Assembly (NCBI GenBank): GCA_963842085.1
Contig: CAWJET010000001.1
Coordinates: forward strand, 1,152,001-1,216,000
Reading direction: 5' to 3'
Length of the DNA stretch: 64,000 bases
Origin: an uncultured delta proteobacterium
GTDB taxonomy: Bacteria; Desulfobacterota; Binatia; Binatales; Binataceae
Shown one piece after another: positions 4,333 through 62,726 of the stretch. The translations under genes were made by a program, and so were the position numbers. The first letter of the stretch is position 1. Each line of letters opens with the position of its first letter. The notes below the pieces were generated by a model that worked only from the letters and a program-made list of their open reading frames with translations, did not search any database and was not told the origin of the DNA.

Positions 4333-6126
4333 ATGACGCGCAATTTCCGAATATTTGCACACGCCTCGCTGCTGGCTGGAGTTTTCTTCGCCGTAACTTT
4401 GCTTGCGGCGCCGCCCGCTCACGCCATCAAGGCGGACGAACTCGTAAAAATCACCTCCGCCACGATCGATCCTCCGCTAAAAGCGGGCGGCGCCAGCACG
4501 CTCAAGGTCGCCGCCCAGGTGATCGAGGGATGGCATATCAATTCGGACAAGCCGCTCAGCGAGGATTACATCGCGACCAGGCTCGAGGTCAGCGGCCCGG
4601 CCGGCGTGACGGCTGGCGCAGTCAAGTATCCGCCGGCTGAGACGATGAAGCTCGACGCCGCGGCGGGCGGCGACAAGATTTCGGTGTTCGGCGGCAATCT
4701 CAAGTTTGAAGTGCCGCTGAAGGCAGCGGCCGACTTCGCGCCAAAGCCGGGCGACGCGCTGACGGTCAAGATCGATTACCAGGGCTGCAATAACACCGAA
4801 TGCTTGCGGCCTGCGTCCGTGAGTAAGACGGTCGCGCTGGCGGCTCCAGGAGCGGCGGCGGGCGCAATCGAGGGTATCGGTGGTGGAAGCGCGATCGGCG
4901 GCGGCGGTAATGGCAGCGGCGATGATTCCGGCGGCGCAATCGCGCGCATCTTCGCCAATCACGGATGGATCCTCGGCTTCCTCGCGGTATTTCTCGGCGG
5001 CCTCGCGCTGAATCTGACGCCGTGCGTCTATCCGCTGATCGGCGTGACGATCGCGTACTTCGGCAACCAGGGCGGCGGGCCTCGGCGCGTGATGTACCTG
5101 GCGATCCTGTTCGTGCTCGGCATCGCGCTGATGTTCTCGTCGGTGGGAGTCGCCGTCGCCCTGTCGGGCGGATTGTTCGGCGCTGCGTTGCAGAACCCGG
5201 TCGTGCTGGTCGTGCTGTCGATGATACTGCTGACGCTCGCCGCGTCGAGCTTCGGATTGTTCGTGCTGCAGCCGCCGAACTGGATGCTGCAGCGCGCGGG
5301 CACCGCTCATCCCGGATACGCGGGCGCGTTGCTGATGGGGCTGGGGATGGGCGTGGTCGCGGCGCCATGCATCGGGCCGATCGTGCTGGGCTTGCTGCTG
5401 ATGGTGGAGCGAAGCGGCAGCGCGCTTTTCGGCTTCGCGCTGTTCTTCACGCTGGCGCTGGGACTGGGCGTGCCGTACGTCGGGCTCGCGATGGCGGCCG
5501 GACATATTCGCCACCTGCCGCGGTCGGGCGAATGGCTCAGATGGGTCGAGCATCTTTTCGGGTTCGTGCTGGTGGGCCTGGCGCTTTACTTTCTCGATCC
5601 GGTCCTACCGAACAACCTGATGACGCGAATCATCCCGTACTACGCGGCCGGCGTGGGTATTTATCTCGGCTTCATTTCGCGCGAGGGCCGAAGCTGGCGT
5701 CCGTTCCTGGTGCTCAGATCGGCGATCGGAGTGGCCGCGGTGGCGGCGCTCGCGATCATGCTCTATCCGCGGCGGGCGCCGGAGAGGCTTCGCTTCGAGC
5801 CGTTCAACCCCCAGCTGCTGGCGTCGGCAGCCGAGGAGCGCAAGCCCGTGCTGATCGATTTCAGCGCCGACTGGTGCATCCCATGCCGCGAGATGGAGCA
5901 TTCGACTTTTGTCGATCCGTCAGTGGTCAGCGAGGCCAGGCGCTTCGTCCGAATGAAGGCGAACCTGACGGCGCAAGACAAGAAAACAGAAGAGCTTACC
6001 AGCAAGTTCGATATCCAAGGCGTCCCGACCACGATGCTGATAAATTCGGCGGGCAAGGTGGCGCAGCGCAAAGTCGGCTACATCGGGCCGCAAGAAATGC
6101 TGGCGGATCTAAGGCAGGTCGATTAA
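4333..6126 (+). CDS. dsbD: thiol:disulfide interchange protein DsbD
   Basis: Signal peptide, N-domain Cys pair (GCNNTEC), transmembrane PCVYP and PCIGP, C-terminal thioredoxin WCIPC. Confidence 0.9.
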   Translation: MTRNFRIFAHASLLAGVFFAVTLLAAPPAHAIKADELVKITSATIDPPLKAGGASTLKVAAQVIEGWHINSDKPLSEDYIATRLEVSGPAGVTAGAVKYPPAETMKLDAAAGGDKISVFGGNLKFEVPLKAAADFAPKPGDALTVKIDYQGCNNTECLRPASVSKTVALAAPGAAAGAIEGIGGGSAIGGGGNGSGDDSGGAIARIFANHGWILGFLAVFLGGLALNLTPCVYPLIGVTIAYFGNQGGGPRRVMYLAILFVLGIALMFSSVGVAVALSGGLFGAALQNPVVLVVLSMILLTLAASSFGLFVLQPPNWMLQRAGTAHPGYAGALLMGLGMGVVAAPCIGPIVLGLLLMVERSGSALFGFALFFTLALGLGVPYVGLAMAAGHIRHLPRSGEWLRWVEHLFGFVLVGLALYFLDPVLPNNLMTRIIPYYAAGVGIYLGFISREGRSWRPFLVLRSAIGVAAVAALAIMLYPRRAPERLRFEPFNPQLLASAAEERKPVLIDFSADWCIPCREMEHSTFVDPSVVSEARRFVRMKANLTAQDKKTEELTSKFDIQGVPTTMLINSAGKVAQRKVGYIGPQEMLADLRQVD

Positions 6127-6221
6127 GACGCGGGCCGCTCGCCCCGCATACGATTCTTGCGACGCGCTTCGCTTCACATTACCTGCGCGCTCTCGTACAT
6201 TCGCTTGTGTGAGGTTTAGCC

Positions 6222-6911
6222 ATGGCTGCGAATGATGGATTCGTGCGCGAGATTTTTGCGATGGTCAAGGAACGGCGCTCTTTCGGACGCCATCCGATTT
6301 GGCATCGAATCGCCGACGGCAAAGTCTCGCAGACCGGACTATGCAACTTCGCCACTCAGTTCTTCCTGCAGGTGCGTGAGTTCCCGCGTGCACTGAGCGC
6401 GCTGCATTCACGATGCTTCAACGCCGAGGAGCGCGTGAAGCTCGCGGAGAGCCTGTACGAAGAGGAGACCGGCAAGATTTCCGGCAGCGCACCGCATCCC
6501 GAATTGTTCATCCGGCTGGGACTCGGCCTCGGGCTGAGCCGCGACGACATGATCCATGGCAAGGCACTCCCTTCAACGGCGGCGTTGATCGACTGGTTCG
6601 AGCTCTCGACCAAGGATCGCTCGTTCGCAGAAGGAATCGGCGCAATCAACCTCGCGGCGGAGGGCCAGGTACCGGGTAACTTCGCGCCGTTCGCGCGCGC
6701 ACTCGAAAAGCATTACGGACTTTCGCGGGAGCAAGTCGCGTTTTTCGACGTACATGAAATCGCCGATCGCGATCACAGCGAGGTCGGTGACAACATTCTA
6801 AGTCACACGCCGATGAGCGAAGTCGAGCGCGCAAAAGTATGGGCGGCGGTCGAGCGCTCGCTCGAAATGTGGTGGCAATTCTTCGACGGAATTCAGCGCG
6901 TTTGCGAGTGA
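6222..6911 (+). CDS. heme-oxygenase-like (PqqC/TenA/CADD superfamily) iron-containing redox enzyme
   Basis: EEETG...HPELF, EGQVP and HEIADRDH metal-ligand pattern; 229 aa helical protein. Confidence 0.75.
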   Translation: MAANDGFVREIFAMVKERRSFGRHPIWHRIADGKVSQTGLCNFATQFFLQVREFPRALSALHSRCFNAEERVKLAESLYEEETGKISGSAPHPELFIRLGLGLGLSRDDMIHGKALPSTAALIDWFELSTKDRSFAEGIGAINLAAEGQVPGNFAPFARALEKHYGLSREQVAFFDVHEIADRDHSEVGDNILSHTPMSEVERAKVWAAVERSLEMWWQFFDGIQRVCE

Positions 6912-7121
6912 AATTTTGGGATGATTTTCGGCCGTTTGGAGAGTCATTCTGGGCTCATCCGATTTCGCAAAATGATGTTCTGTTACGGGCGCTGTGTGGT
7001 TTTGTTGAAAGCCTATAGCGGCGTAGCGTCTATAAGGCGGAAAATGCCCGCTTAACGGTTACTTTTCTGTCCACAGGCGTCAGATTCAAATAGCGTTTGG
7101 TCAGCCCATTCTTACGATTAG

Positions 7122-19753: not shown

Positions 19754-21199
19754 TCAAAGTTCAGGGCTCGAGGGCAGGAAAGTCTCGCCCATCAGGTACG
19801 CGTCGACCGCGCGCGCGGCTTCGCGCCCCTCCCAGATCGCCCATACCACCAGCGATTGCCCGCGACGTGCGTCGCCCGCGGCGAAAACTCCCGGCACGCT
19901 CGACATGTAGTTCTCGCACTGCACGTTGCTGCGCGGGTCGAGCTTTAGGCCGAGCTCGGAGATTATGCCGTCGGGCTCGGGACCGAGAAATCCGAGCGCG
20001 AGCAGCACAAGGTCGCACTCGAGCTCGAAGTCGGTGCCCGGAATTTGCTCCATCACCATGCGCCCGTTGTCACGCTTCCAGTTGAGCCGCACGCCGTGGA
20101 GCTTTTTCACCACCCCGTTTTCGCCGGAGAACCGGCTGGTGTTCACGCTCCAGTCGCGTTGCACGCCCTCTTCGTGCGAACTCGAGGTGCGCATGATCAT
20201 CGGCCAATCGGGCCACGGCATTTCGGCGGTGCGTTTTTCAGGCGGCATCGGCAGCAGCTCGAACTGATGCACGACGATCGCGCCCTGGCGGTTCGAAGTG
20301 CCGAGACAGTCGGAACCCGTATCGCCGCCGCCGAGAATTACCACGCGCTTTCCGTTCGCGGTGATCTCGGCTGAAGGATCGAGCGCGTCGCCGAAGTTGC
20401 GCTTGTTTTGTTGCGGCAGGAATTCCATGGCGAAATGGATTCCCTTGAGCTCGCGTCCCGGGATCGGCAGGTCGCGCGGCTTGGTCGCGCCCATCGTGAG
20501 CACGATTGCGTCATACTTCGAGCGCATCTCGTCGGCATGGATATCGAAGCCCACGCGGCAGTTGGTGACAATCTCGAGGCCCTCGGCCTTCATCTGCTCG
20601 ACGCGGCGGTTGACGATCCATTTTTCCAGCTTGAAGTCCGGAATGCCGTAGGTGAGCAATCCGCCGACCCGATCCGACCGCTCGTAGAGCGTCACAGAAT
20701 GACCGGCCCGCGTGAGTTGCTGCGCGCACGCCAGCCCCGACGGTCCCGAGCCTACGACCGCGACGCGCTTACCCGATTTGCGGGCCGGCGGCAGTGGCGC
20801 GATCCACTTTTCACCCCACGCGTGATCGATAATATTCTTCTCGATCAGTTTGATCGTGACGGGATCGTTGTTGATGTTCAGGACGCAGGCCTCTTCGCAC
20901 GGCGCCGGGCAAATCCGGCCGGTAAACTCCGGAAAGTTGTTGGTCGCGTGCAGCCGATCGATCGCCTCGCGCCATCTGCCGCGGTAGATGAGATCGTTCC
21001 AGTCGGGGATGATATTACCGAGCGGGCAACCCTTGTGGCAGAAGGGAATCCCGCAATCCATGCAGCGGGCGCCCTGCGCGCGCAGCTTGTCTTCGGGCAT
21101 CTTGAGATCGAATTCGCGCCAATCCTTCAGGCGTTCGCCGACCGGACGCCGCGAAGGAGTCTCGCGCTTGATCTCCATGAAGCCCGTGATCTTTCCCAT
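19754..21199 (-). CDS. gltD: glutamate synthase small subunit
   Basis: [32 protein letters not shown] and GQSLVVWAI motifs. Confidence 0.97.
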
Positions 21200-21259
21200 T
21201 ACAGACGCGATCTCTCCCAGTCAGGTCAATTCTGATTAGTCAGTCGATTACTCACTCGG

Positions 21260-24200
21260 CTAAACTGCGGCCAGCCGCGCGAGATCGGAATCCATGTTGA
21301 GATGCTGCCGTTCGAGCACCATTCGATACTCAGTGGGCAATACTTTTACGAACTTCTTAGTATCGTCGTCCCACTTGTCGAGGATTCGCCGCGCGACCGT
21401 GCTCTGCGTGTACTGCTGGTGCCGCACGATCAGCGCGTGCAACTGCTTGAGTTCGTCCTGGTTGCCGATTGGCCCCAACTCGACCATTCCGGTGTTGCAG
21501 CGCGAGGCGAACGAGCCGTCTTCGTCGAGCACATAAGCCACGCCGCCACTCATGCCGGCCGCGAAGTTGCGACCGGTCTTGCCCAGCACCACGACCAGTC
21601 CGCGCGTCATGTACTCGCATCCGTGGTCGCCGACGCCCTCGACAACGGTGTGCGCACCGCTGTTGCGGACCGCGAACCGTTCGCCGGCGACGCCGCGGAA
21701 GAACGCCTCGCCGCCGGTCGCGCCGTAGAGCGCGACGTTGCCGATGATGATGTTGTTCTCGGCCTTGAAGGTCGCTTCTTTTGGGGGACGCACCGAGACA
21801 AATCCGCCCGACAGTCCCTTGGCGCAGTAGTCGTTCGCGTCGCCTTCGAGATAGAGCGCGACTCCCGGCGCGAGCCACGCGCCGAAGCTCTGGCCGGCCG
21901 AACCTTTCAGATGAATCTGAACTGTGTAGGGCGGCAGTCCCTCCGCGCCAAAACGCCGCGACACCTCCGCCGACAGCATGGTGCCGACGGTGCGATTGAC
22001 GTTGCGGATCGGAAGATGAATTTCGACGGCCTCGCGATGTTCGAGCGCCTCCATGGCAAGCTCGATGATCCGGTTGTCGAGCGCGGCGTCGAGGCCGTGA
22101 TCCTGCAGCTCTACGCAATGCAACGGCTCGTCGGGGCCGACATCGGGACGGCGAAGAATATTGGCCAGGTCGACGTTGCGCGCCTTCCAATGCGCGATCG
22201 CTTCGTTGGCGTCCAGGCATTCGACGTGGCCGACCATTTCGGCGACGGTGCGGAAGCCCAACTGCGCCATGTATTCGCGCAGCTCGTCCGCGATGAACAT
22301 CATGAAGTTCACGACGTGCTCGGGCTTGCCGGTGAACTTTTCGCGGAGCACCGGATCCTGCGTCGCGATGCCGACCGGGCAGGTGTTCAGGTGGCAGACG
22401 CGCATCATGATGCATCCCGAGGCGACCAGCGCGGCGCTCGCGAAACCGAATTCCTCGGCGCCGAGCATCGCCGCGATGGCGACGTCGCGGCCGGTCTTGA
22501 GCTGGCCGTCGGTCTCGACGTGAATGCGTCCGCGCAGGCCGTTCATCACCAGGGTCTGCTGGGTCTCGGCCAGTCCCATCTCCCACGGAATTCCCGCGTG
22601 CTTGATCGACTGCAGCGGAGACGCGCCGGTGCCGCCGTCGTAACCGCTGATCAACACCACGTCGGCTTTGGCCTTTGCGACTCCGGCCGCGATGGTGCCG
22701 ACGCCGACCTCGGCCACCAGCTTGACGCTGATGCGCGCGCGGTTGTTGGAATTTTTGAGATCGTGGATCAGCTGCGCGAGATCTTCGATCGAATAGATGT
22801 CGTGATGCGGCGGCGGAGAGATCAATCCCACGCCGGGCGTTGAATAGCGAATCTTGGCGATGAAATCGTCGACCTTGTGGCCGGGAAGCTGGCCGCCCTC
22901 GCCCGGCTTGGCGCCCTGCGCCATTTTGATCTGGAGTTCGTCGGCGTTGACCAGGTAATGACTGGTGACGCCGAAGCGCGCCGACGCCACTTGCTTGATC
23001 GCGCTGCGGCGCCAATCGCCGTTGGCATCGCGGACGAAGCGCGCGGGATCCTCGCCGCCCTCGCCGGTGTTGCTCTTGCCGCCGATCCGGTTCATGGCGA
23101 TGGCGAGATTTTCGTGGGCCTCCTTGCTGATCGAGCCGAACGACATCGCGCCGGTTTTGAAACGCTTGACGATCTCGGCCGCCGGCTCGACTTCCTCGAG
23201 CGGCACCGGCCGCCGATTGGAATTGAACTTGAGCAGCGAGCGCAGCGTGGCGAGCGAGCGGCTCTGCTCGTCAACCGCCCGGGTGTATTCCTTGAACAGC
23301 CGGTAACTTCCCGAGCGCACGGAATGCTGCAGCCGCGCGATCGTGTTCGGGTTGTACATGTGGAACTCGCCGGCGCGGCGCCACTGGTACTGGCCGCCGA
23401 CGTCGAGATCGCCGTCGAGGTTCGCCGCCACCTTGAACGCGTAGGTGTGACGCGCGGCGGTCTCGCGCGCGATCGCGTCGAGGCCGATACCGGCCACGCG
23501 CGACGGCGTCCATGTGAAGTACTTGTCGATCACGTCCTTGGCCAATCCGATCGCCTCGAAGATCTGCGCGCCGCGGTAACTCTGCGTCGTCGAGATGCCC
23601 ATCTTGGACGCGACTTTCGTAATGCTCTTGCCGACGGCCTTGATGAAGTTGTGGACGGCGTTGTCTTCGTCGATGTCGCGGAGCTGGCCGCTGCGAATCA
23701 TCCCGGCCATCGTCGCGTACGCGAGGTACGGATTGACGGCGCCGGCGCCGTAGCCGACCAACAGGCAGAAATGCATCGCCTCGCGCGGTTCACCAGCCTC
23801 GACCACGATGCCGGCCCGGGTGCGCGTGCCTTCGCGAATCAGATGATGATGCACGGCCCCGGTCGCAAGCAGAGCCGGGATGGCGGCGTAGTCCGCGTTC
23901 ACTCCGCGATCTGAAAGCACGATTATGGTGTAGCCGGATTCGATCGCGCCGGAAGCACCGCGGCAGAGCGCGTCGAGCGCGGCGCGCAGCCCCGCTTCAC
24001 CGTCATCGACGCGATACAGCGTGGGAAGCGTGATGGTGCGCAGACCCTCAACGTCCAGCCGTTTGATCCTTTCGAGTTCTTCGTTGGTAAGAATTGGTTG
24101 CTTGAGTCGAAGCTGGCGGCAATGATGCGGCGATTCTTCGAACAGGTTGTCTTCGGCGCCGATCGTCGTTTCGGTCGAGGTCACCAGTTCCTCGCGAATC

Positions 24201-25819
24201 GGATCGATCGGCGGATTCGTCACCTGCGCGAACAACTGTTTGAAGTAGTTGTAAAGCGGCTGGGGTCTGTTCGAGAGGACGGCGAGCGGCGTGTCAGTGC
24301 CCATCGAGCCGACCGGCTCCTGCCCGTTGGTCGCCATCGGCGCGAGGAGCATCTTGAGATCCTCGATCGTATAGCCAAATGACTGCTGCTGCTTGAGCAA
24401 CTCGCCATCTTCGAAGCTGTCAACCTCGGGCGCGCCGTTCGCCTCGGGAAGCGACTCGAGCGTGACCAGGCTGCTGTCGAGCCAGGCGCGATACGGCTGT
24501 CGCGCCGCCATCGACTGCTTGATCTCTTCGTCCTGCACGATTCGACCGAGCGACGTATCGATGAGAAACATACGGCCGGGCTGCAGCCGCCCTTTGAGTG
24601 CGACATTCTCCGGCGCGATGTCGAGCACGCCGGTCTCGGACGCCATCACGACCAGCCCGTCCTTGGTCACGGTGTAGCGCGACGGACGAAGGCCGTTGCG
24701 ATCGAGCACCGCGCCGATCCTGATACCGTCGGTAAACGCGATTGACGCGGGGCCGTCCCACGGTTCCATCATGCACGAGTGAAAATGGTAGAAAGCGCGC
24801 TTGGCGTCGCTCATCTGCGCGTCGTTCTGCCACGCCTCCGGAATCATCATCATCACGGCATGCGGCAGTGAACGTCCGGTGCGCACCAACAGCTCGAGAC
24901 AGTTGTCGAAGGTTGCGGAGTCGCTGCCGTTGGGCTCGACTATGGGCAGCAGCTTCTTGATGTCGTCGCCGAACAGCGGCGAAGAAAAAAGCTTCTCGCG
25001 CGCGTGCATCCAGTTGATATTGCCGCGCAGCGTGTTGATCTCGCCGTTGTGCGACATGAAGCGGTACGGATGCGCGCGGTCCCAGCTTGGGAACGTGTTG
25101 GTCGAGAAGCGCTGATGGACCATCGCGAGCGCGGTCGTGACGGCGCCGTTGCGCAAGTCGGGGAAGAACTGGGGAATTTGCGTCGAGATCAACTGGCCCT
25201 TGTAAACTACGGTCAGGGCCGAGAGGCTGCAGAAATAAAATAATTCCGGATCGAAGAGCCCCAGCTTTTCCGCCTCGGACGTAGCCCGCTTGCGGATTAC
25301 GTACAGCTTGCGCTCGAGCGCTTCGCCGTCGGCCAGGCCGGGGCCGCGCGCGATGAAGACCTGGCGGATTGCGGGCATCCCGCGCCGCGCGATATCGCCG
25401 CAGGCGGATTCGACCACCGGCACGTCGCGCCATCCGAGCAGCTGTTGCCCTTCCTCGTTGACGATTCGCTCGAACGCGTCCTCGCATTCCTTGCGCTTGA
25501 TCGTGTCGAGCGGCAGGAAAACCTGGCCGACGCCGTATTCGCCGGGTGCGGGCAATTCAAAGCCGAGCCGGGCCGCTTCGTGCGAGAAAAAGTCGTGCGG
25601 GATCTGCAGCAGGATTCCGGCGCCGTCGCCGGTGCGCGGATCGCATCCGCACGCACCGCGATGGGTCAGGTTGTCGAGCACCTGCAGCGCCTTGACGACA
25701 ATGTCATGCGAGCGTTCGCCCTTGATGTTGACGACGAAGCCGACGCCGCACGCGTCGTGCTCGTAGGCGGGATCGTAGAGGCCCTGTGCTTCTGGAATGC
25801 TTCGGTGGTTATGCATCAT
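21260..25819 (-). CDS. gltB: glutamate synthase large subunit
   Basis: HDACGVG Ntn cysteine, [32 protein letters not shown] and GXGXG C-terminal repeats. ATG at 25819 overlaps the Lrp stop. Confidence 0.97.
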
Positions 25820-26379
25820 GACACCCGTCTCGGATCCGGCGGCGCGGATTTCGCGGAGCCGTGGCGATGGCGTCTGCCGTTGGCGGGCTCGTGCGAGTCG
25901 CCGTTGGCATGCACCGAAATCAAACCACGCTCGGTATGCGTCGACAGCACCACCATCGTCTCCGTCCGCGCCACTCCCTCGATCGAGCGGATCGCACTGA
26001 TGAGCCGCTCGAGCGACGAAGTGTTTTCGGTTTTGACTTTCAGCAAGAGCGTGTGCTGACCGGTGACGTGATGACATTCGAGCACGTCGTCGAGCAGCGC
26101 GACGGATTCCTCGAACAGCGAAATTGTTTTCGGGTGCGAAACCGACACACCGATAAACGCGGTGACGTCCTTGCCCAGGCGCGTCGCGTCGACGGCGGCG
26201 TGGTAGCCGGTGATGACTCCGCTGTCTTCGAGCTTTTTTACGCGCTCATTGACGGAAGGCGCCGAAAGCCCGACTTGTTCGCCGAGTTTGACGAGCGGAA
26301 TCCTGCCGTGTTCCTGCAGGATACCGATAATCTGCAGGTCGATGGCATCGAGTTCGGGGGAATCTCCGCCGAATTTCAT
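25816..26379 (-). CDS. Lrp/AsnC family transcriptional regulator
   Basis: LDAIDLQII...[19 protein letters not shown] and ECHHVTG RAM domain. Confidence 0.93.
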
Positions 26380-27501: not shown

Positions 27502-28941
27502 CTACGAATGCGGATAGGCGTCGCTTCCCATCTCGAGCGCATCGAGCCCCGACCATTCCACTTCCACCAGCACGCGGTTGCCGACCGTGCGCTCGACGAT
27601 CTTGAAGAACACGATCGCAAGCCCGAATACCACGATGAGATTGACGGTAACGCCGATCAACTGGGCGAAAAATTGGCCCGCGTCGCCGTAAAGCAGGCCG
27701 CGCACAGGTCCCGCGACACCGTTCCATCCGTCGCCGTAGGTGCCGTCGGCAAACAGACCGAGCGCCAGCGCGCCCCACAATCCGCACGCGCCGTGCACGG
27801 CGACCGCGCCGACGGGATCGTCGATTCGAAAGCGGCGCTCCAGCTCAAGCACGGCCCAGACGACCAGCAGTCCCGCGACGGTGCCGATGAGAACGGCCGC
27901 CGCCGGCGTTACGAATGCGCATGGCGCGGTGATCGCGACGAGTCCGCCCAGCAGGCCATTGCAGGCTATCGCGATGTCGGGTTTGTTGTAGCGATGCCAT
28001 AGAAAGAGCAGTGCCGCGAGCGCGCCGGCCGCCGAGGAGAGCATCGTGTTCACCCCGATAATCGCGATGCGGGAATCTGTGGCGGCGAGCGATGAGCCGC
28101 AATTGAAGCCGAACCATCCGAACGCGAGAATCAACGTTCCGCTCACGGCCATCGGCAGGTTATGTCCGGGTAACGCGCCGATAGCGCCGTCGCGCCGGAA
28201 CTTTCCGATGCGCGGACCCAACATGTAAGCGCCGGCGAGCCCGGCTATTCCGCCCGTCATGTGCACCACCGACGAACCCGCGAAATCCAGATGGCCGTGG
28301 CCGAGGCCCAGGTTCACGCCGAGCTGCGAGAGCCATCCTCCGCCCCATACCCAGTTGCCATACAACGGATACAGGAACATCGAGATGAACAATCCATAGA
28401 TGAAGAACGCCTTGAACTTCCATCGTTCCGCCATCGCGCCGGTCGGAATGGTCGCGGCGGTGTCCATGAAGACGACCGAGAACAAAAACATGCCGAGGCT
28501 GGCGGGATCGCGGCTGACGTTGAGCAGTGCGAACTTGCTGAACCCGAGGATGCCGTAGGAATGCGCGCCGATCGTGATCGACAGCTCGCGATGGCCGATT
28601 GCGGCCATGCCGAGCGAGGGCCAGTGCGCGACCCCGCCCATCATGAACGCATAGCCGGTGAGCCAGAACCCGATGATGCCGATCGGGTAGATGATCAAGT
28701 TCATCGCCATCGTGTTGACCGCGTTCTTGGAGCGGGTGAACCCCGTCTCCACCATCGCGAATCCGAGCTGCATGAACATCACGAGGAACCCGGCCACCAG
28801 CAGCCACGCGAGGTTCAGCGAATTGTCCAGCGGCGGCGACGACGCCAAGGTCTGCGCGCGCGCCACTGACGAGAACGAAAGTAACGCCAGCGCAGCAACA
28901 ATGGCGGCGGTCAATCCGAGTTGCGATCGTCTCGGCATCAT
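27502..28941 (-). CDS. amt: ammonium transporter (Amt family)
   Basis: FMQLGFAMVETG, GAMAER, DFAGSSVVH, GWFGFN, IDDPVGAVAVHG and C-terminal GLD..AY motifs; signal peptide. ATG at 28941 overlaps the kinase stop. Confidence 0.95.
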   Translation of the reverse strand: MMPRRSQLGLTAAIVAALALLSFSSVARAQTLASSPPLDNSLNLAWLLVAGFLVMFMQLGFAMVETGFTRSKNAVNTMAMNLIIYPIGIIGFWLTGYAFMMGGVAHWPSLGMAAIGHRELSITIGAHSYGILGFSKFALLNVSRDPASLGMFLFSVVFMDTAATIPTGAMAERWKFKAFFIYGLFISMFLYPLYGNWVWGGGWLSQLGVNLGLGHGHLDFAGSSVVHMTGGIAGLAGAYMLGPRIGKFRRDGAIGALPGHNLPMAVSGTLILAFGWFGFNCGSSLAATDSRIAIIGVNTMLSSAAGALAALLFLWHRYNKPDIAIACNGLLGGLVAITAPCAFVTPAAAVLIGTVAGLLVVWAVLELERRFRIDDPVGAVAVHGACGLWGALALGLFADGTYGDGWNGVAGPVRGLLYGDAGQFFAQLIGVTVNLIVVFGLAIVFFKIVERTVGNRVLVEVEWSGLDALEMGSDAYPHS

Positions 28942-29954
28942 CTCACCTGCCCTCGATATGACCGGCGCGGTGCAGTCGGCGCGGCCGGGTAACGGTTTGC
29001 CAGCCAAATCAGAAATACAAAGATCCCGATGAGCGAGGTGAAGAACGCCACGTACCCAAGCGTACGGCGCATCCGCTGCATCGCGAGGCTGCGCGGATGG
29101 AGGCGCTGCGCGCGGCCCTTGGGAACGACGCGCGACGGATCGCGCAGGTCCTCGAGCATCGCAGCCGCGGTCGCGTAGCGATCGCGCGGATTGCGCTCGA
29201 TCGCGTGCAGGACGATCTCCTCGAGATGCTGATCGAGATCGGGCTTGAACGCGGTCGGCGGCTGCGGATCTTCGGCGGTCTTCGAGCGCATCACGGTGTA
29301 GACGTTGGGACCCGAGTACGGCAGGTGGCCGGTCAGCATCTCGTACAGAATCACGCCCAACGAATAGATGTCGGTGCGGACGTCGCCGCGCCGGCCGCTG
29401 ACCTGTTCGGGCGCCATGTAGTCGGGCGTGCCGATGGTCGACGACAGGCCGGACCACGTCAGCCGCCGCGCGGATTCGTCGAGTGCGATGCCAAAGTCCA
29501 TGATTTTAGTCTTGCCCGCGGCGGTCACCAGGACGTTTTCCGGCTTCAGATCGCGATGCACCACGCCTTCGCCGTGCATATACACCAGCGTCTCCGCCAA
29601 CTGGCGCGCGAGACCGAGCGCCTTCTCCACCGGCAGCCCGCCATCGCTTCGCATGATGGCGCGCAGCGACTCGCCCTCGACGTACTCCATCGCGATGTAC
29701 ATCCGGCTTTTGCGCCTGGGGGTGAGGACCTTGATGATGCCGGGATGGTTGAGGCGGCGCCCGACTTCTTCTTCGCGCTGAAAGCGGCCGTAGAAGACCA
29801 CGTCGCTCTCGAACTGCATGTAGGGCACTTTGATCGCGACGGTCGCGCCGCCGATCTGATCGATGGCTTTGAAGATCGACGCCATCCCGCTGCGCGCGAT
29901 CACCTCGATCAATTTGTACTGATCGAGGTTTTCACCAACGCTGACCTCGCGCAT
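28938..29954 (-). CDS. Hanks-type Ser/Thr protein kinase with C-terminal membrane anchor
   Basis: VAIK, HRDLKPEN, DFG, GTPDYMAPE and DIYSLG motifs; one hydrophobic helix near the C-terminus. Confidence 0.95.
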   Translation of the reverse strand: MREVSVGENLDQYKLIEVIARSGMASIFKAIDQIGGATVAIKVPYMQFESDVVFYGRFQREEEVGRRLNHPGIIKVLTPRRKSRMYIAMEYVEGESLRAIMRSDGGLPVEKALGLARQLAETLVYMHGEGVVHRDLKPENVLVTAAGKTKIMDFGIALDESARRLTWSGLSSTIGTPDYMAPEQVSGRRGDVRTDIYSLGVILYEMLTGHLPYSGPNVYTVMRSKTAEDPQPPTAFKPDLDQHLEEIVLHAIERNPRDRYATAAAMLEDLRDPSRVVPKGRAQRLHPRSLAMQRMRRTLGYVAFFTSLIGIFVFLIWLANRYPAAPTAPRRSYRGQVR

Positions 29955-30041
29955 CTTTCGGACCGTCTGGGGAAAAGGCGGTCAGCGGACGTTAACACCC
30001 GGCACGCCGGCAATGGAAGGGGACGGCGGCGTCCGGATGAC

Positions 30042-30869
30042 TCATCGCCCGAACAATCCTCGAATTCGATCGCGCCATCCGCCGGTGCTCGCCGTATGCC
30101 CCGTATGCGACGTCATTCTGAAGACCGCACAGGTCAGATTGTCAGCGGTACCGCGCTGGTTGGCCGTATCGATCAGGCTCCGGCAGGCCGTCTCGGCGTC
30201 AACCTCGCGTGTCAGCGATTCGAGTTCCTCCGCGTCGAGCACGTTGTAGAGTCCGTCGCTGCACAATATCAGGCGGTCGTGCTCCAGCAGCGGCAGCGTG
30301 ATCCGATCGATCGACGCTATCAACTCGCGCCCGAGGCTGCGCAGCAGCATCCCACGCTCAGGATGAGTCTTTGCGCGCGCCGCCGTCATCATGCCCATCC
30401 TGACCTTGTCGGCGACCATCGTGTGATCCTTGGTGACAACTGAGATTTGGCTGTGACGAATCAGATGCAGCCGGCAATCTCCGATGTGCACCGCCGACAA
30501 TATCCCCTTCTCCACCGCAACCGCGGTCATCGTGGTCGCCATGCGGCCCAGTTCCGGCACCGTCAGCGCCTTGTCGTGAATCCCGATGTTGGCCCGCGTG
30601 ATCGCGCGATAGAGCCGCTTGGCGGCGCCCCACTCCGGCGGGCTCTCGCGGTAAGCTTCGAGCGTTATGTCGATCGCCATGCGGCTGGCGATTTCGCCGC
30701 CTTCGTAGCCGCCGACGCCGTCGGCAACCGCAAACACCACGCTGTCGGGACTCTCGATGAAATGCCCGCACGAATCTTCATTGTCGGGGCGCGTTGTACC
30801 TACGTCGGACAGCAGCGCCAACTCGAAAGCCTGCTCCACGGCTGGGGGAGCGGACGGCGGCGAATCCAT
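30042..30869 (-). CDS. PP2C/PPM-family Ser/Thr phosphatase
   Basis: RPDNED, VADGVGG, HIGDCR, LCSDGL and DNLT motifs. Confidence 0.95.
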   Translation of the reverse strand: MDSPPSAPPAVEQAFELALLSDVGTTRPDNEDSCGHFIESPDSVVFAVADGVGGYEGGEIASRMAIDITLEAYRESPPEWGAAKRLYRAITRANIGIHDKALTVPELGRMATTMTAVAVEKGILSAVHIGDCRLHLIRHSQISVVTKDHTMVADKVRMGMMTAARAKTHPERGMLLRSLGRELIASIDRITLPLLEHDRLILCSDGLYNVLDAEELESLTREVDAETACRSLIDTANQRGTADNLTCAVFRMTSHTGHTASTGGWRDRIRGLFGR

Positions 30870-30992
30870 TTGCAGTGCGTTACCCAGAACTAACTTGGCC
30901 TTGAAGTGAAAGTTGTTTCAAACGGCCAAGGGGCGAGCCGCGATCGCTCGCGGCTCGCCCCACGGATTTATTCGCCAAGCCAACTGTTGGGA

Positions 30993-32651
30993 TTAGGCCG
31001 GCTTGGTTACGAGAATCGTCTCCTTGCCCTTCTTCTTCGAGTTACGTACGAAGTAAATCCATCCGTAGATTCCCCAAACGATCGACAGCACCACCGCGAT
31101 GATCGGCTCCTTCCAACTACCGAGCCCTTCGATTGGCCCGATGATATAGAACGCCATGCAGGCGAAGTTCGCGAGCGCGCCGAATACCGGCACCACCATG
31201 TGCTTGAAGCCGTTGAACTCGTCATGCTCGCGGAAGGCTACGATGCAGATGACGTTAGTCAGACCGTAGAGCCCGAACGTTCCGAAGTTGGAAATCAGCG
31301 TCACCAGCGAGAGCCCGTTTGGGAGCGAGGCCAAGGTCGCGTTCGAGCCGATGCCCAGCGCATACCAGACGGTGTGCGGCAGCGCAGCGATGGTCTTGTC
31401 GTCGGGAGCTGCGGGCCCGCAGAAGAAGAACAGCGCGGCGAACGCGCCCAGGATTGCCGAGATCGTCGCGAGCGTCCAAATCGCGCGATGCGGCGTCAGG
31501 TTCTCGCCGTGCAGCATGCCGAAGTGTTCCGGCACTTCTTCGTCGCGGCCCATCGCGTAGGTCACGCGCGCCCCGGTGTTGATGCAGCTCAGGGTAGTGC
31601 CGATCAGCGCCAGGAACACTGTCAGCGCTTCGAGCAGCATGAACGCTTGGCCGTGTCCGCTGAGCAGGGTGTTTCCGATGATGACCATCATATCGCCGAT
31701 TGGCGCGGCCGAGCCTTTCGCGTCGGCCAGGCTGTAGGCGCTGTTCATGAAGTAATTCGCGGCGAAGTATTCGATCAGGTACATGAACAGGCACTGGATC
31801 GTGATCGACAGCAACACGCCACGCGGAATATCCTTCTTGGGGTTTATGGCCTCCTCTCCGAGCGAAGTGATCGACTCGAAGCCGACCAGCAGCAGGATTG
31901 CGATCGTCGCTTGCAGCATCAGCCAGTTGAAATTGTGCGGCAGGATCACCGAGAGCGCGCCTGGATGCGCCGGCGCGTCGCCGCTGAACGTGTAATGCAG
32001 CACCTTGCTGGTGCCATCGAGAGCCATGCCGGTGGACCCATCGGGGTGTCCAAACCGGTAAGCAATCGCAAGCGCCGAGAAAAAAAGCAGCGCGACAATC
32101 TGGATCGCGTTGATCGCAATATTGACATTCGTGGACCCGACCACGCCCCGGTATGCGATCCAGGCCACAAAGTACGCGAAAATTATCGCAATCAGTGCCA
32201 TGAAAACCGGGCCCGGGATCGCCGCATTCATATAGTTGGGAGCTATGCTGCCGACGATATAGCCGATCATGATGCCCATCGTCGCCACCATCACGCCGGG
32301 GTAAACCCAATAGTAAAGGTGCGATGACCAGCCAGTGACGAACTTCGCGATTCGGGCGAACCTGTACGCATGTGTGGTATTGAGAAACGCCTTCTCCGCG
32401 AAAAGGTACGAGCTACCCGCCCCTGGATAGAGCTTGGCGAGCTCCGCGTAGGAGATCGCGGTCGCGTAGGCAAGTACTATGGCGAAGAAGATTCCTGCCC
32501 ACATCGCCATGCCGGACGGGTACGCGTAACCGGCTTGGACTACGAACGTGATCCACAGGAACGCGCCCGGCGCGATCAACGCCATCGCGTTCACCGTCAC
32601 CCCGGTCAATCCCAGGGTCGGTTTCATCTTGGGTTCTGTTGCTTCGGCCAT
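30993..32651 (-). CDS. APC-family amino acid/amine permease
   Basis: About 12 hydrophobic segments; YAELA..YPGAGSSY, VGFES..LGEEA.NPKKDIP and GARVTYAMGRD motifs. Confidence 0.92.
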   Translation of the reverse strand: MAEATEPKMKPTLGLTGVTVNAMALIAPGAFLWITFVVQAGYAYPSGMAMWAGIFFAIVLAYATAISYAELAKLYPGAGSSYLFAEKAFLNTTHAYRFARIAKFVTGWSSHLYYWVYPGVMVATMGIMIGYIVGSIAPNYMNAAIPGPVFMALIAIIFAYFVAWIAYRGVVGSTNVNIAINAIQIVALLFFSALAIAYRFGHPDGSTGMALDGTSKVLHYTFSGDAPAHPGALSVILPHNFNWLMLQATIAILLLVGFESITSLGEEAINPKKDIPRGVLLSITIQCLFMYLIEYFAANYFMNSAYSLADAKGSAAPIGDMMVIIGNTLLSGHGQAFMLLEALTVFLALIGTTLSCINTGARVTYAMGRDEEVPEHFGMLHGENLTPHRAIWTLATISAILGAFAALFFFCGPAAPDDKTIAALPHTVWYALGIGSNATLASLPNGLSLVTLISNFGTFGLYGLTNVICIVAFREHDEFNGFKHMVVPVFGALANFACMAFYIIGPIEGLGSWKEPIIAVVLSIVWGIYGWIYFVRNSKKKGKETILVTKPA

Positions 32652-32740
32652 CTTGCCTCCTTCAATTCATTCGGCGCAGCGGTTGTCCGCCGCATCCGCG
32701 TGCGGCGCTCCTGTTACGGGCAGGAGCGAACGATGCAGAA

Positions 32741-32756
32741 AGCACGAAAAGTGCCA
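32741..32756 (-). promoter_or_regulatory. sigma54 (-24/-12) promoter of the permease-phosphatase-kinase-amt cluster
   Basis: Minus strand reads TGGCAC-TTTTC-GTGCT (exact GG-N10-GC), about 90 nt upstream of the permease start. Confidence 0.75.
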
Positions 32757-32797
32757 TTTCAAAATCGAGTGAGTATTGATGAAAAATGCAATGCGCC

Positions 32798-32833
32798 TGC
32801 CCAAACGATAGGCATTCGCCTATCGGTCGGTCA
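32798..32833. promoter_or_regulatory. candidate NtrC-like enhancer pair, or terminator hairpin of the upstream gene
   Basis: TGCCCAAACGATAGGCA (TGC-N11-GCA) plus an inverted related copy CGCCTATCGGTCGGTCA. Confidence 0.45.
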
Positions 32834-34342
32834 TCAGTGCGCGCTAGCAGGAATTCCGACCGCCACCATCAATAGGGGACTCTTCCCCGCCGCGTGCGGC
32901 TCGAAGAATTTGGTCGTGTCGTCGTCGTAAAAAGTGAGTCCGGTCGCGCCGCGGCCGAGCGAATATGCCGCGAGATAGGCCCGGCCACCGAGAATTCCGG
33001 CCTCGAGATGCGCGTCGCCGTAGCCGCGATTTCCCAAGGCGCGCAGCACGCGCTCGAGCTCGGCCATGTACACCACTAGGGCAGAACAATCCATTCCGAG
33101 CGGCTGCTCGAGGCACAAATACCCGGCCTCACCGCGGAAGTTGCCTGCCTTCAGCAACTCGAACACGCGCGCATCCCGGTCGTAATAGTATGCTCCGGGT
33201 TCCAGCCCTTCCGCTGCGTTGACGATCAGGTAAGTGTCGGTCAACCGCGGAAAGTCGGCCTGCGGATGTTCGCTTGAGGCGGCCATGATCGTCGCGAGTT
33301 CTTCGGCGGTAATCGCGTCCTGGGCGAATGCCCGCGACGATCCTCGGCGGATGATCGTCTCGCCGAGTCCCCTGGAATCTTCCGCGGCTATCGTTTCGAA
33401 ACGTAGCGCACTCGTGCTCGACGACGGCGGAGCCGAATCCAGTTGCGCAGCCGAAAGCGTAGCGACCGCATCGGTCGTGAGCAGCCGCGATTCGCTATGC
33501 ATCTTGACGAGGTCCGGGTACGCGACCTCCTTCGACGAAAGCGGAATCGACTCGAGCGTCAACGGCCCGATCTCAGGCGATGGTCCAGCGGGTTCATCGG
33601 TGCGCCCGAGCGCGACCAGCGCGATCATGCCCTCGCGCTCGCCGTCGATTCCGAGCAACGCCTCGAGCGCCGGATCCTCGAACGCGGTGATCACTTCGGC
33701 GGAAATTTCCTCGGCCGCGGCAGCCGCGAGCAGATTCGCAAGCAGCGTTCCCGCGTCCCAATAGCAATAGCGGTACGCGCGCGCGCGATATTTCCACTCG
33801 CTGCGCCAGTAAATCGCCGACAATGCGAGCACGGCTCTCGCGCGCCTAATCGACGGGCGCCTCGCAGCCGCGTCCGCAATGTAACCACGCCAATCGCCGC
33901 GCCGCAGCCCGGCCATCCGCAAATCCGCGGGTGAAAAGTGGTAAAGGCCCGCCTCGAGGCCCTCAACGTTGCCGGCAGCCGCATAAATCTCGATCGGATA
34001 CAGGGCGCCCGCAGACGGCGCGGCGCGGAAATGATAGTCGTCGGCGCCCACCCGCTTGTGCCGGGTCAGGCCGTTGGCACAGAACAAGATTCGCGTCAGC
34101 GCCGCCGTATCAATCGATGCGGAAAAATCCGCCGGCACGTGCGACGAAAGCGCCGACAGCGTCGGCGTCGCGGAAAGGTTCAGATCGCGCGGCAAAGCGA
34201 CCGACGCGGCTCCGGGATAAATCTTGTAGGGGAGCGGCTTGATGTCCCAATCGAGAAAATGCGGCGACGAACGCACGCTGGTGTACGAATGCTTGGTGAT
34301 TTCGTGAAAAACGCGCGCCGCTTCGATGTAATCGTTGCCCAA
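32834..34342 (-). CDS. SagB/ThcOx-like tandem nitroreductase-domain FMN dehydrogenase
   Basis: RAAPSAGALYP, YRARAYRY..DAG and a second RRGSSRAF repeat; TTG start with RBS. Confidence 0.85.
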   Translation of the reverse strand: MGNDYIEAARVFHEITKHSYTSVRSSPHFLDWDIKPLPYKIYPGAASVALPRDLNLSATPTLSALSSHVPADFSASIDTAALTRILFCANGLTRHKRVGADDYHFRAAPSAGALYPIEIYAAAGNVEGLEAGLYHFSPADLRMAGLRRGDWRGYIADAAARRPSIRRARAVLALSAIYWRSEWKYRARAYRYCYWDAGTLLANLLAAAAAEEISAEVITAFEDPALEALLGIDGEREGMIALVALGRTDEPAGPSPEIGPLTLESIPLSSKEVAYPDLVKMHSESRLLTTDAVATLSAAQLDSAPPSSSTSALRFETIAAEDSRGLGETIIRRGSSRAFAQDAITAEELATIMAASSEHPQADFPRLTDTYLIVNAAEGLEPGAYYYDRDARVFELLKAGNFRGEAGYLCLEQPLGMDCSALVVYMAELERVLRALGNRGYGDAHLEAGILGGRAYLAAYSLGRGATGLTFYDDDTTKFFEPHAAGKSPLLMVAVGIPASAH

Positions 34343-61233: not shown

Positions 61234-61619
61234 AGAACTAGATGTTCGATTTGGCTTACCTTCGAGGCGATCGTCGTCGGATCCAATTGACCGACCGGGA
61301 GAAGCTTCCACGCCGGCATCATTTCCTCAAATCACCCTTCGAACCCACCAGGAGAGACGACTACTATCATGCGCGCTCTGCCCGCGCCTTCATTGGAAAA
61401 AGAGTGGACCCGTCAACGAGCGCACCGGTTGGCGACCGCTCCTGGCCGTATCCGAAGGTGAGCCAGGGGTTCCGCCACCGAGTCTAGATGACCGATCTCT
61501 CGAGCTTGAGTCATGCCGGGCCGCATTACCCGCACACACCAACTCTCTAGTCTTTCGCCGCGTTTCGGCGTTTTCGGTAGCGATAACTATGATTCGCGCT
61601 CCATGTTGGAGGAACGGCG

Positions 61620-62726
61620 TTGAATAAAGTCATCTGCATTTTAGCAGGGGTGATGTGCGTCGCCCTCGTGGGCCCGGCCTATTCGCAGTACGCCAGTACC
61701 TCGGCTACTTCCGTACAAAAGAGCTCGAAGCTTCGGATGGCTGTGTGCGTCGCGCCCCCCAGTGTCATGGAGCAAAACGGCTCGCTGACCGGGTTCAGCA
61801 TCGATCTTTGGAATGCAATTGCCGCGCAGTTGAAGGCGAGGGCCACGTATCAGATCGAACCGGATGTGCCGGCTCTTGAAGAGGCGATGCTTTCGAAAAA
61901 GGCCGACCTCGCGTTGGACGTCTTCATAACGTCGGCGCGCACTACGGCATTCGACTTTTCGATACCGATAATGGAGGCAGGGCTGCAAATTGTTGTGCGA
62001 AGGACCGGTGGGAAGGCTCATCCGGAAAGCCTGCTATCGGACATGTTGCGCCTGACGTTCTCGACCACGACCCTGGAGTGGCTCGGTCTGGCATTGCTCC
62101 TCATCCTGATCCCTGCCCACCTGGTCTGGTTCTTCGAACGAAGGACAGACGACGGTATTGTTTCGAACCCAAACTACTTCCCTGGAATTTTCGAGGCAGC
62201 CTTTTGGGCGTTATCGACGCTGACGCAACAGGCGGAAGCCATGCCTCGTCAATGGATTGGGCGGATGGTCGCAATCTTCTGGCTGTTCGTGGGGGTGGTT
62301 TTCGTAGCGTTCTACACCGCCCAGTTGACGACTGCCATGACCGTCGATCAGATCAGCGGCGGCATTGATGGTCCCGGCGATCTACCCGGCAGGGAGGTTG
62401 CGACACTGGCCGGCTCGAACGCCGTTGAATATCTGACGAAGCATCACGCACGGGTGCAGGAATTTCCGACCACCGAGCAAATGTTCGAGGCGCTGCTCAA
62501 CAAGAAGGTGGATGCGGTGGTTTCGGCCGCACCGATGCTGCTTTACTTTGCGAGGCATGAGGGGAAGGGACGGGTAAAGGTGGTCGGCCTCAATTTTGAC
62601 ACCGCGCCGGTTGCCATCATGTTTCAGCTCGGCAGTCCGCTCCGCAGAAACGTAGATACTGCGTTGGCCGCGCTTCGTGAGAACGGCACCTATCAGCAGA
62701 TTTACGACGAATGGTTCGGCCCCTAG
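61620..62726 (+). CDS. prokaryotic glutamate-receptor-like ligand-gated ion channel (S1-M1-P-M3-S2)
   Basis: Signal peptide; PBP family 3 lobes (GFSIDLW, ITSAR..FDFS, LRENGTYQQIYDEWFG) interrupted by two transmembrane helices and a pore loop; FYTAQLT gate-like motif. Confidence 0.85.
   Translation: MNKVICILAGVMCVALVGPAYSQYASTSATSVQKSSKLRMAVCVAPPSVMEQNGSLTGFSIDLWNAIAAQLKARATYQIEPDVPALEEAMLSKKADLALDVFITSARTTAFDFSIPIMEAGLQIVVRRTGGKAHPESLLSDMLRLTFSTTTLEWLGLALLLILIPAHLVWFFERRTDDGIVSNPNYFPGIFEAAFWALSTLTQQAEAMPRQWIGRMVAIFWLFVGVVFVAFYTAQLTTAMTVDQISGGIDGPGDLPGREVATLAGSNAVEYLTKHHARVQEFPTTEQMFEALLNKKVDAVVSAAPMLLYFARHEGKGRVKVVGLNFDTAPVAIMFQLGSPLRRNVDTALAALRENGTYQQIYDEWFGP

Follow-up and report, generated by a model that had tools for sequence, protein, structure and literature searches.

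A putative nitrogen-transporter and phospho-signaling module of the Binataceae: an APC permease, a PP2C phosphatase and a membrane-anchored Ser/Thr kinase encoded with an ammonium transporter

Bacterial ammonium uptake is held in textbooks to be gated by PII proteins (GlnK), and Ser/Thr phosphorylation of the tails of Amt/Mep transporters to be a eukaryotic invention. What, then, would a Ser/Thr kinase do that is encoded together with a protein phosphatase between an APC-superfamily permease and an ammonium transporter (Amt) of a bacterium? The question is raised by a locus in a 64-kb stretch of the genome of an uncultured member of the Binataceae (assembly GCA_963842085.1, contig CAWJET010000001.1, here C1, positions C1:1152001-1216000). 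Near-identical kinases carry names that assign the organism to Candidatus Binatus / Binataceae. The whole stretch is referred to as the window, and coordinates are positions in it unless a contig or another locus is named. Four co-oriented genes lie there on the minus strand, as listed in a first reading of this DNA made from its letters only (the sequence-only reading), and their Pfam matches agree with that assignment:

30993-32651, minus strand: APC-superfamily permease of 552 amino acids (Pfam AA_permease_2, PF13520, 78.9 bits)
30042-30869, minus strand: cytosolic PP2C (PPM) Ser/Thr phosphatase of 275 amino acids (Pfam PP2C_2, 59.4 bits)
28938-29954, minus strand: Hanks-type Ser/Thr kinase of 338 amino acids (Pfam Pkinase, 160.4 bits)
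27502-28941, minus strand: Amt ammonium transporter of 479 amino acids (Pfam Ammonium_transp, PF00909, 372.1 bits)

The TGA stop codon of the kinase gene overlaps the ATG start codon of amt in the sequence ATGA, an overlap already pointed out in the sequence-only reading. The locus is best explained as a conserved, putative module of nitrogen transport and phospho-signaling, and the linkage data make it very likely that the products of the linked genes function jointly.

Linkage of the genes within and beyond the Binataceae

Orthologs were sought in a family set of 165 Binataceae genomes, with thresholds of E ≤ 1e-70 for the kinase and E ≤ 1e-170 for the Amt (the kinase count takes in genomes G415, G416, G497, G553, G559, and G560, and the Amt count G416, G553, G559, and G560, which are flagged as unpublished). 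The kinase was identified in 139 of these genomes, including 86 of the 96 high-quality ones, and the Amt in 114. In 113 of the 114 cases the Amt gene was situated no more than 600 nucleotides (nt) from the kinase gene on the same contig. Counted by genome, 113 had both genes, 26 the kinase only, one the Amt only (G524, 88% complete) and 25 neither; some of the kinase-only cases represent broken or cut genes.

We fetched 58 loci, including four second copies, from 54 of the family genomes, none of them flagged as unpublished. The Amt gene adjoined the kinase gene in 47 of the 54 genomes, a PP2C gene was located within 400 nt of the kinase gene in 46 (within 3.5 kb in 48), and an APC gene within 4.5 kb in 42, with four of the 12 misses at contig ends. 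The PP2C-kinase-Amt triad was found in 45/54 genomes and all four genes in 40/54. The ATGA overlap was kept in 34 of 41 loci, the remainder having spacings of -1 to +7 nt, bar two outliers. Paralogous second PP2C-kinase pairs adjoined other Amt paralogs (L044, L058). One candidate, an 816-residue frame joining kinase and Amt in locus L012 (genome G418, 4525-6975, minus strand), was rejected as a true fusion and is taken to reflect a 1-nt indel of a long-read assembly: the frame shifts just past the kinase helix, lacks the conserved tail RSYRG, and would give a fusion of the wrong topology.

Outside the family, a sample of 401 genomes of the phylum contained a relative (~50% identity) only in G286 and G229, both of another family, where PP2C and kinase are fused into a protein of 600 amino acids with the same C-terminal helix and a six-residue tail. 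A search of species genomes with this PP2C::kinase fusion identified 59 loci, 58 of them true relatives, which by National Center for Biotechnology Information (NCBI) label comprised 29 Nitrospirota, 11 Geobacteraceae, 3 Desulfobacteraceae, 4 Verrucomicrobiota, 1 Planctomycetota, and 1 Pseudomonadota, the rest having vague labels. An Amt gene followed within 6 kb 3′ of the fusion in 41 of the 44 loci with enough flank, and the same permease gene was present directly 5′ of it in 44/48. Between fusion and Amt, 38 of 44 loci (L066-L124), and likewise L060 (7760-8086, plus strand), had a gene for a small four-helix membrane protein of the YnfA/UPF0060 type, a gene absent from the Binataceae module.

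The fused kinases scored 346-408 bits on the profile of the Binataceae module kinases, through the linker and helix, as compared with 670 bits for the module kinase itself and at most 95 bits for the five other Hanks kinases of its genome. Because of this gap between the fused kinases and the paralogs, the module is, as judged by profile scores, one orthologous unit, either old or transferred whole. Synteny, which the sequence-only reading had proposed to follow across phyla, extends far past close relatives, into genomes labeled Nitrospirota, Thermodesulfobacteriota, and Verrucomicrobiota. The kinase alignment, used as a profile against 1.84 billion representatives, drew matches dominated by multi-kinase-domain giants, which did not permit the breadth of the subfamily to be read; only a few of the matches, single-stretch proteins of ~335-353 or ~600 amino acids, look module-like. 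Cultured carriers are Geobacter argillaceus ATCC BAA-1139, Geomonas sp. Red32, and Geomesophilobacter sediminis Red875.

It could be argued that these genes are neighbors without a joint function, that is, a generic kinase/phosphatase pair among nitrogen genes, as there are kinase-only loci (L015, L040) and genomes that have the kinase without an Amt ortholog (26/165). We consider this very improbable, given the near-constant adjacency of Amt and kinase genes (113/114), the retention of ATGA (34/41), the paralogous pairs beside other Amt paralogs, and the recurrence of the same partners in several phyla despite fusion and inserted genes. This cross-phylum recurrence suggests that nitrogen uptake is controlled, or sensed, by phosphorylation in a eukaryote-like manner that has gone unstudied.

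Proteins of the module and candidate tail sites

The kinase consists of a kinase domain (residues 15-265), a conserved juxtamembrane motif, and one hydrophobic segment (301-319) followed by 19 C-terminal residues, in agreement with the full catalytic core, single C-terminal transmembrane helix and lack of a sensor described in the sequence-only reading. An AF2 model (pLDDT 84.6) has a kinase fold, a helix at 290-321, a disordered activation loop (156-175), and an unstructured tail. Residues K42 (VAIK), D135 (HRDLKPEN), D153 (DFG), and activation-loop T166 align to PknB and are invariant in 42 orthologs. The juxtamembrane motif P..V..TGR..RL is kept across phyla, the sequence of the helix is not, and in no phylum does the kinase have an outside domain, its C-terminal tail being 5-19 residues long. 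Forkhead-associated (FHA) proteins of the genome adjoin only other kinase clusters and none is encoded near the module, for which reason a GarA/OdhI-type output was rejected.

The PP2C has no hydrophobic segment by hydropathy, and its metal-binding Asp motifs (NED, ADGVGG, CSDGL, and ADNLT) align with the solved structures 5iti/2j82, so that both partners of the kinase/phosphatase switch proposed earlier have intact catalytic residues. Its NCBIfam match, Stp1_PP2C_phos, reached 202 bits, under the cutoff of 230, and only two PP2C_2 genes are held by the genome, that of the module being one. In the permease, PF13520 spans residues 13-524 and hydropathy gives 11 segments, near the about 12 of the APC superfamily. 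Its NCBIfam matches all fall far below their cutoffs, with no equivalog cutoff reached, and the nearest solved chain, 6f34, matches only at E 8e-7. By these comparisons the permease is a divergent APC subfamily to which no substrate is assignable from NCBIfam; 248 of its 552 columns are at least 90% identical among 18 sequences in two groups. In L034 (3350-4639, plus strand), L042, and further loci of genera g275 and g2, a gene for an OmpL-like beta-barrel porin (BBP2, 221 bits) is situated between permease and PP2C, and the inserted porin may provide outer-membrane entry for the same substrates.

The Amt covers positions 1-399 of the 399 in the PF00909 profile, scores 382.5 bits on TIGR00836 (cutoff 343.3), and has a signal-peptide-like N-terminus. 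Its pore residues, namely the twin His H227 and H383, the Phe gate F158 and F277/279, W199 and S283 of the vestibule, and the conserved D219, align to those of Escherichia coli AmtB and are invariant in 42 orthologs, which bears out the earlier remark that both pore histidines are kept. Of the solved chains, 6eu6 (1e-63) and 8qj3/8qpf (1e-59) come nearest, E. coli AmtB being more distant (1e-49), and the residue numbering of the former matches Ks-Amt5 and Sd-Amt1, described as ammonium receptors in passages of PMC11152129. The same passages propose a receptor signature, QX6EX15NX2D[F/T]X54-60TX2[S/T]. The module Amt has Q58-X6-E65-X15-N81 at receptor spacing, with Q58 and E65 invariant and N81 at least 90% conserved in orthologs. 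The Asp-[F/T] of the signature is absent, its place being taken by Ile84-Tyr85 (Val/Ile then Phe/Tyr in other phyla). T164-X2-T167 is present and invariant but lies 78 residues past position 85, against 54-60 in the signature, because of a loop insertion. Asn328 occupies the position of the exit-blocking Asn269 of Sd-Amt1, which is Ser in AmtB, and Glu65 that of a Tyr in AmtB. The resulting pattern, Q-E-N-[VI]-[FY]-T-T-N, is common to the kinase-linked Amts of other phyla and to the PII-linked second Amt (Amt2) of the same genome. By its sequence, the module Amt belongs to an AMT1/sensor-like class and matches the ammonium receptor class only in part.

A quick maximum-likelihood tree of 52 Amts (SH-aLRT support) placed the kinase-linked Amts of the Binataceae in one clade (99), nested in a larger clade (98) with other module Amts and Amt2, and the fused sensor Amts in a separate clade (99). 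Many longer Amt relatives contain a histidine kinase, a chemoreceptor module, or GGDEF/EAL domains as fusion partner. Other fusions are P0131, an Amt with a C-terminal kinase that was found on two contigs, and P0206, a metagenome protein of 917 amino acids in which a SpoIIE-type PP2C and DUF6272 are joined to an Amt that has the full receptor signature. The kinase of P0131 scored 59 bits on the module profile and is not of the module subfamily.

These relatives bring up the main alternative, in which the module is a split transceptor and the sensor-less kinase has the Amt, and perhaps the permease, as its ligand-binding receptor. When occupied by ammonium, the Amt would change at its cytoplasmic face and thereby switch the tethered kinase, which would phosphorylate other proteins until reset by the PP2C, and the module would be the unfused counterpart of the Amt-histidine-kinase and Amt-cyclase receptors. 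We regard this as possible though rather unlikely. That the nearest solved chains are, by numbering, Ks-Amt5/Sd-Amt1 rather than AmtB, and that the Amt shares Q58, E65, N81, T164, T167, and Asn328 with the receptors, are consistent with it, but the signature Asp is replaced, the F/T position is Tyr, the spacing to the Thr pair differs, and the residues for transport are all intact. Similarly, natural fusions join Amts to a Pkinase domain (P0131), SpoIIE (P0206), histidine kinases, chemoreceptors, and GGDEF, although the module Amts fall outside the clade of fused sensors and the P0131 kinase is outside the module subfamily. The kinase is sensor-less in all phyla, and PII often co-resides, so that the usual gate of the Amt is already in place in such loci; there is no evident downstream substrate, however, the FHA proteins being found only beside other kinases.

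A second Amt paralog (~40% identical) adjoins the paralogous PP2C-kinase pairs of L044 and L058 and is also found in L012 and L013. More of the receptor signature is present in this paralog (Q, E, D, T, T, and S, the Asn being replaced by Gly), and a conserved extension lengthens its C-terminus.

The C-terminal region of the module Amts reads GNRV..EVEW[S/T]GLD.LEMG[S/T][D/E]AYP. Among 42 orthologs, residue 464 is mostly Ser (24 sequences) or Thr (16), with Asn in the other 2, and residue 473 is either Ser (37) or Thr (5), so that the serines of EWSGLD and GSDAY, put forward earlier as candidate sites, are kept as Ser/Thr in 40/42 and 42/42 sequences, respectively. The sequence-only reading was also right that the plant AMT1 phospho-Thr is not conserved, the position being Leu469 (GLDAL). 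Both 464 and 473 align to Glu in E. coli AmtB (rEGLD and GEnAY). In the other examined Amts of the class, including Amt2 of the same genome, position 464 is Glu/Asp, with a single I, Q, and other outliers among 60 Amts from other-phyla loci, and it is only this first site that keeps Glu in these proteins. The clade with the Ser/Thr tail is monophyletic (SH-aLRT 99). Conservation extends to basic residues in the cytoplasmic loops (R70/K72 and R244/K247/R249/R250). As Ser/Thr replace the Glu residues of AmtB and the basic loop residues are conserved, a charge switch at 464/473 is plausible in the Binataceae Amt. Passages of PMC13745463 report for plant AMT1;1 that the loops bind the C-terminal domain and that the phosphomimic T460D loosens this domain.

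Our preferred explanation for the Binataceae, held tentatively and with somewhat less than even confidence, is reversible phosphorylation of the transporter tail. It is favored because Ser/Thr replace Glu of AmtB, because the Amt is hardly ever found without the kinase, and because the two are translationally coupled. The kinase would be made together with the Amt and held beside it in the membrane by its one C-terminal helix, and would phosphorylate the cytoplasmic C-terminal region of the Amt, with the PP2C as eraser. The likely sites would be Ser/Thr464 and Ser/Thr473, where phosphate would supply or withhold charge for docking of the tail on the basic cytoplasmic loops, and the change in docking would switch ammonium uptake. 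The adjacent permease is a possible second target. The sequences show the gene linkage, the translational coupling, the intact catalytic residues, the conserved Ser/Thr, and the nitrogen context; physical contact, phosphorylation, its site and its sign we infer. A complex prediction of Amt residues 36-479 with the kinase scored 0.01 (mark 0.32) and speaks neither for nor against binding.

Nitrogen control and transcription around the module

The sequence-only reading had described the system as one without PII. No PF00543 match occurs in the window, so that the absence of glnK and glnB from it holds; as a trait of the system, however, the absence of PII does not, as the genome-wide search identified two PII genes (C1:1270318 and C1:1410897, both outside the window) and GlnD. 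The genome has three Amt genes including that of the module, and one PII gene is near the second. Both PII proteins carry Tyr51, and the Amt2-linked one has Ser49. A PII gene directly 3′ of the kinase-linked Amt gene, the amtB-glnK order, was found in none of the 58 fetched family loci, whereas it was found in 25 of 41 loci of other phyla. In five of 54 family loci (L021, L023, L028, L029, and L063) a PII gene is instead directly 5′ of the permease, the permease-PP2C-kinase block there sitting between PII and amt. Of six module-linked PII proteins examined, four have Ala49 and most have Tyr51. Since PII is encoded in the genome and directly after the Amt in those 25 other-phyla loci, the kinase is not simply a replacement for GlnK.

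Other elements and neighbors of the four genes in the window are as follows:

32834-34342, minus strand: SagB-type dehydrogenase (nitroreductase family, two-domain), 5′ of the permease, as it is in many other loci of the family
32741-32756, minus strand: sigma54-type -24/-12 promoter element TGGCACTTTTCGTGCT, 90 nt 5′ of the permease ATG
30930-30961, minus strand: GC-rich 14-bp stem-loop directly 3′ of the permease stop codon
26611-27417, minus strand: enoyl-CoA hydratase gene, between amt and the Lrp gene
25816-26379, minus strand: Lrp/AsnC-type regulator, 3′ of the module
19754-25800 (gltB start near 25800 approximate), minus strand: gltB and gltD, large and small subunits of glutamate synthase (GATase_2, Glu_syn_central, Glu_synthase, GXGXG; Fer4_20 and Pyr_redox_2)

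The gltBD genes, identified by their Pfam matches, are on the strand of the module and represent a nitrogen-assimilation context, and an Lrp gene was 3′ of the module in 32 of 54 family loci. Elsewhere in the window (61593-62723, plus strand) there is a gene for a GluR0-like prokaryotic glutamate-receptor channel, with an SBP_bac_3 periplasmic domain and Lig_chan.

Such neighbors lead us to consider whether the kinase/PP2C pair modifies a soluble regulator (PII/GlnK, Lrp, or glutamate synthase), with the transporters as co-regulated neighbors or anchors. We judge this improbable. The proximity of PII genes (25/41 loci of other phyla and 5/54 of the family), of Lrp, and of gltBD would fit, as would Ser49 of the Amt2-linked PII, but most of the module-linked PII proteins examined have Ala49, most keep Tyr51, and GlnD is present. 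The best solved matches of the PP2C, 5iti/2j82 (2e-33), are what we take to be the cyanobacterial PII phosphatase tPphA; they are, however, barely ahead of Stp1 (3e-29) and PstP (2e-27). In addition, a soluble target would leave the ATGA coupling and the near-constant pairing of Amt and kinase unexplained.

The promoter element TGGCACTTTTCGTGCT, TGGCAC-N5-GTGCT, has the exact GG-N10-GC spacing, with one mismatch to TGGCAC-N5-TTGCW, the sigma54 consensus that we assumed for the scan. Such sites number three in the window as compared with 1.46 expected, which alone is not significant. The motif GGCA-N7-TGC is present within 220 nt 5′ of all 41 of 41 family APC genes, as compared with 81 of 3464 background windows and 3/51 PP2C, 1/58 kinase, and 4/54 Amt genes; because of this conservation we take the sigma54 site of the permease as real. 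The genome encodes rpoN (215.7 bits). The promoter proposed earlier is in these respects retained, its spacing exact and its motif conserved, though with a mismatch it is not an exact one. By eye, TGCA-rich repeats such as TTGCATTTTTCA are seen just 5′ of the element (32760-32830, minus strand) in many family loci, and these could be activator sites.

The 126-nt spacer between permease and PP2C genes folds at -55 kcal/mol (z -5.4), and a hairpin of -27 kcal/mol or lower was found 3′ of 40 of 42 family APC genes, as compared with 19% of 244 control windows. The sequences of these hairpins have diverged between family loci, and a T-run is often present. A simple terminator scan made no call at the hairpin in the window because its T-run is weak, and the hairpin was kept on the basis of folding energy and conservation. 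It looks like a terminator or attenuator, and the permease may be its own sigma54 unit: since the conserved hairpin follows the permease gene, the sigma54 promoter may serve mainly the permease, with read-through into PP2C-kinase-amt being possible. A single four-gene sigma54 operon, as proposed in the sequence-only reading, is for this reason doubtful.

Several of these findings weigh against phosphorylation of the Amt tail. The module occurs in parts, as APC-PP2C-kinase without Amt in L050 and L054 and as kinase-Amt without PP2C and APC in L011 and L025. GlnD is still encoded in the genome, as are two PII proteins carrying Tyr51. In other phyla, kinase-linked Amts mostly retain Glu/Asp at 464 and are often followed by PII, and because of this the general function of the module cannot depend on the tail serines. 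The replacement by Ser/Thr is a single evolutionary event without counterpart in other phyla, so that its concurrence with a missing neighboring PII gene counts as one case (n = 1). Finally, the nearest solved relatives are ammonium receptors, and the Amt-output fusions, including P0131 and P0206, point to signaling in the reverse direction. Of the kinase/phosphatase switch that was first thought to gate or read two transporters, the linkage and the conserved residues stand, the four-gene operon is doubtful, and the absence of PII is only local.

A broader proposal, which we put forward as doubtful, would bring these observations together as an ancient Ser/Thr-phosphorylation transceptor pathway in at least four to five phyla, in which the tethered kinase and PP2C have the Amt and APC permease as receptors reporting external ammonium or amino acids, with or without PII. 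In the Binataceae the transporter itself would have become the target that closes the loop, with phospho-acceptors in place of two acidic residues of its tail and with the neighboring GlnK gene lost. If tail phosphorylation does occur, Binataceae would gate ammonium uptake as plants and fungi do.

Comparison with known systems

Our search of the literature found no description of the APC-PP2C-kinase-Amt module, although it may be mentioned among the fused-domain types of PMC11152129. If our interpretation is true, the module would give bacteria that abound in soil and sediment (Binataceae, Thermodesulfovibrionales, and Geobacteraceae) a second level at which nitrogen is controlled or sensed, one not described before. 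The readings are directly testable, as cultured carriers exist and the tail of the Binataceae Amt has two defined candidate sites.

The locus resembles amtB-glnK of E. coli in the close linkage of amt to a gene whose product is a cytoplasmic regulator, and the Amt itself resembles AmtB in the C-terminal motif G.RV..E.E..GLD....G..AY and in all of its pore residues. It differs in that the partner is a membrane-anchored Hanks kinase with a PP2C, PII being encoded elsewhere in the genome, and in that the Amt has E65 and N328 for Tyr and Ser, and S464 and S473 for two Glu.

A sensor-less Ser/Thr kinase with membrane and periplasmic nutrient-binding partners is known from Actinobacteria, where PknG-GlnX-GlnH acts in glutamate metabolism. 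The kinase family and the partners of that system are unrelated to those described here, and near the module of the window there is no gene for an FHA substrate. In yeast, Mep2 is phospho-controlled by Npr1. Fusions of PP2C and kinase are known from Pseudomonas, where they sit in nitrate-assimilation operons. They resemble the module in having an N-terminal PP2C on a Hanks kinase, the form that it takes outside the Binataceae, and differ in that the two are separate genes in the window. Passages of the paper that describes such fusions call them an uncharacterized class, with no link to Amt or APC genes in those passages (Krupa and Srinivasan, 2005; PMC1262709).

Ties between Amts and signaling enzymes have been described before: passages of PMC11796062 (2025) propose an Amt-phosphatase fusion of SAR11 as a sensor. 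Closest in structure are Ks-Amt5 and Sd-Amt1 of the PMC11152129 passages, the nearest solved structures, which share the Q/E/N/T/T residues, the exit Asn, and a signaling enzyme tied to the Amt. In the module, by contrast, the Asp of the signature is Ile, the kinase is a separate, tail-anchored protein encoded upstream, and the clade differs from that of the fused sensors.

By motif, the Amt of the window also has most of the N1/N2 residues that, in the same passages, define cluster 2, the cluster to which plant AMT1 is assigned there. The phospho-switch at Thr460 of plant AMT1;1 (PMC13745463, in part) is alike in the use of tail Ser/Thr phosphorylation, which is only proposed here, and in the basic loop residues that face the tail. 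Unlike the plant transporter, the Amt of the Binataceae has Leu469 at the position of the Thr and its candidate sites elsewhere in the tail, and a PknB-like kinase is encoded beside it.

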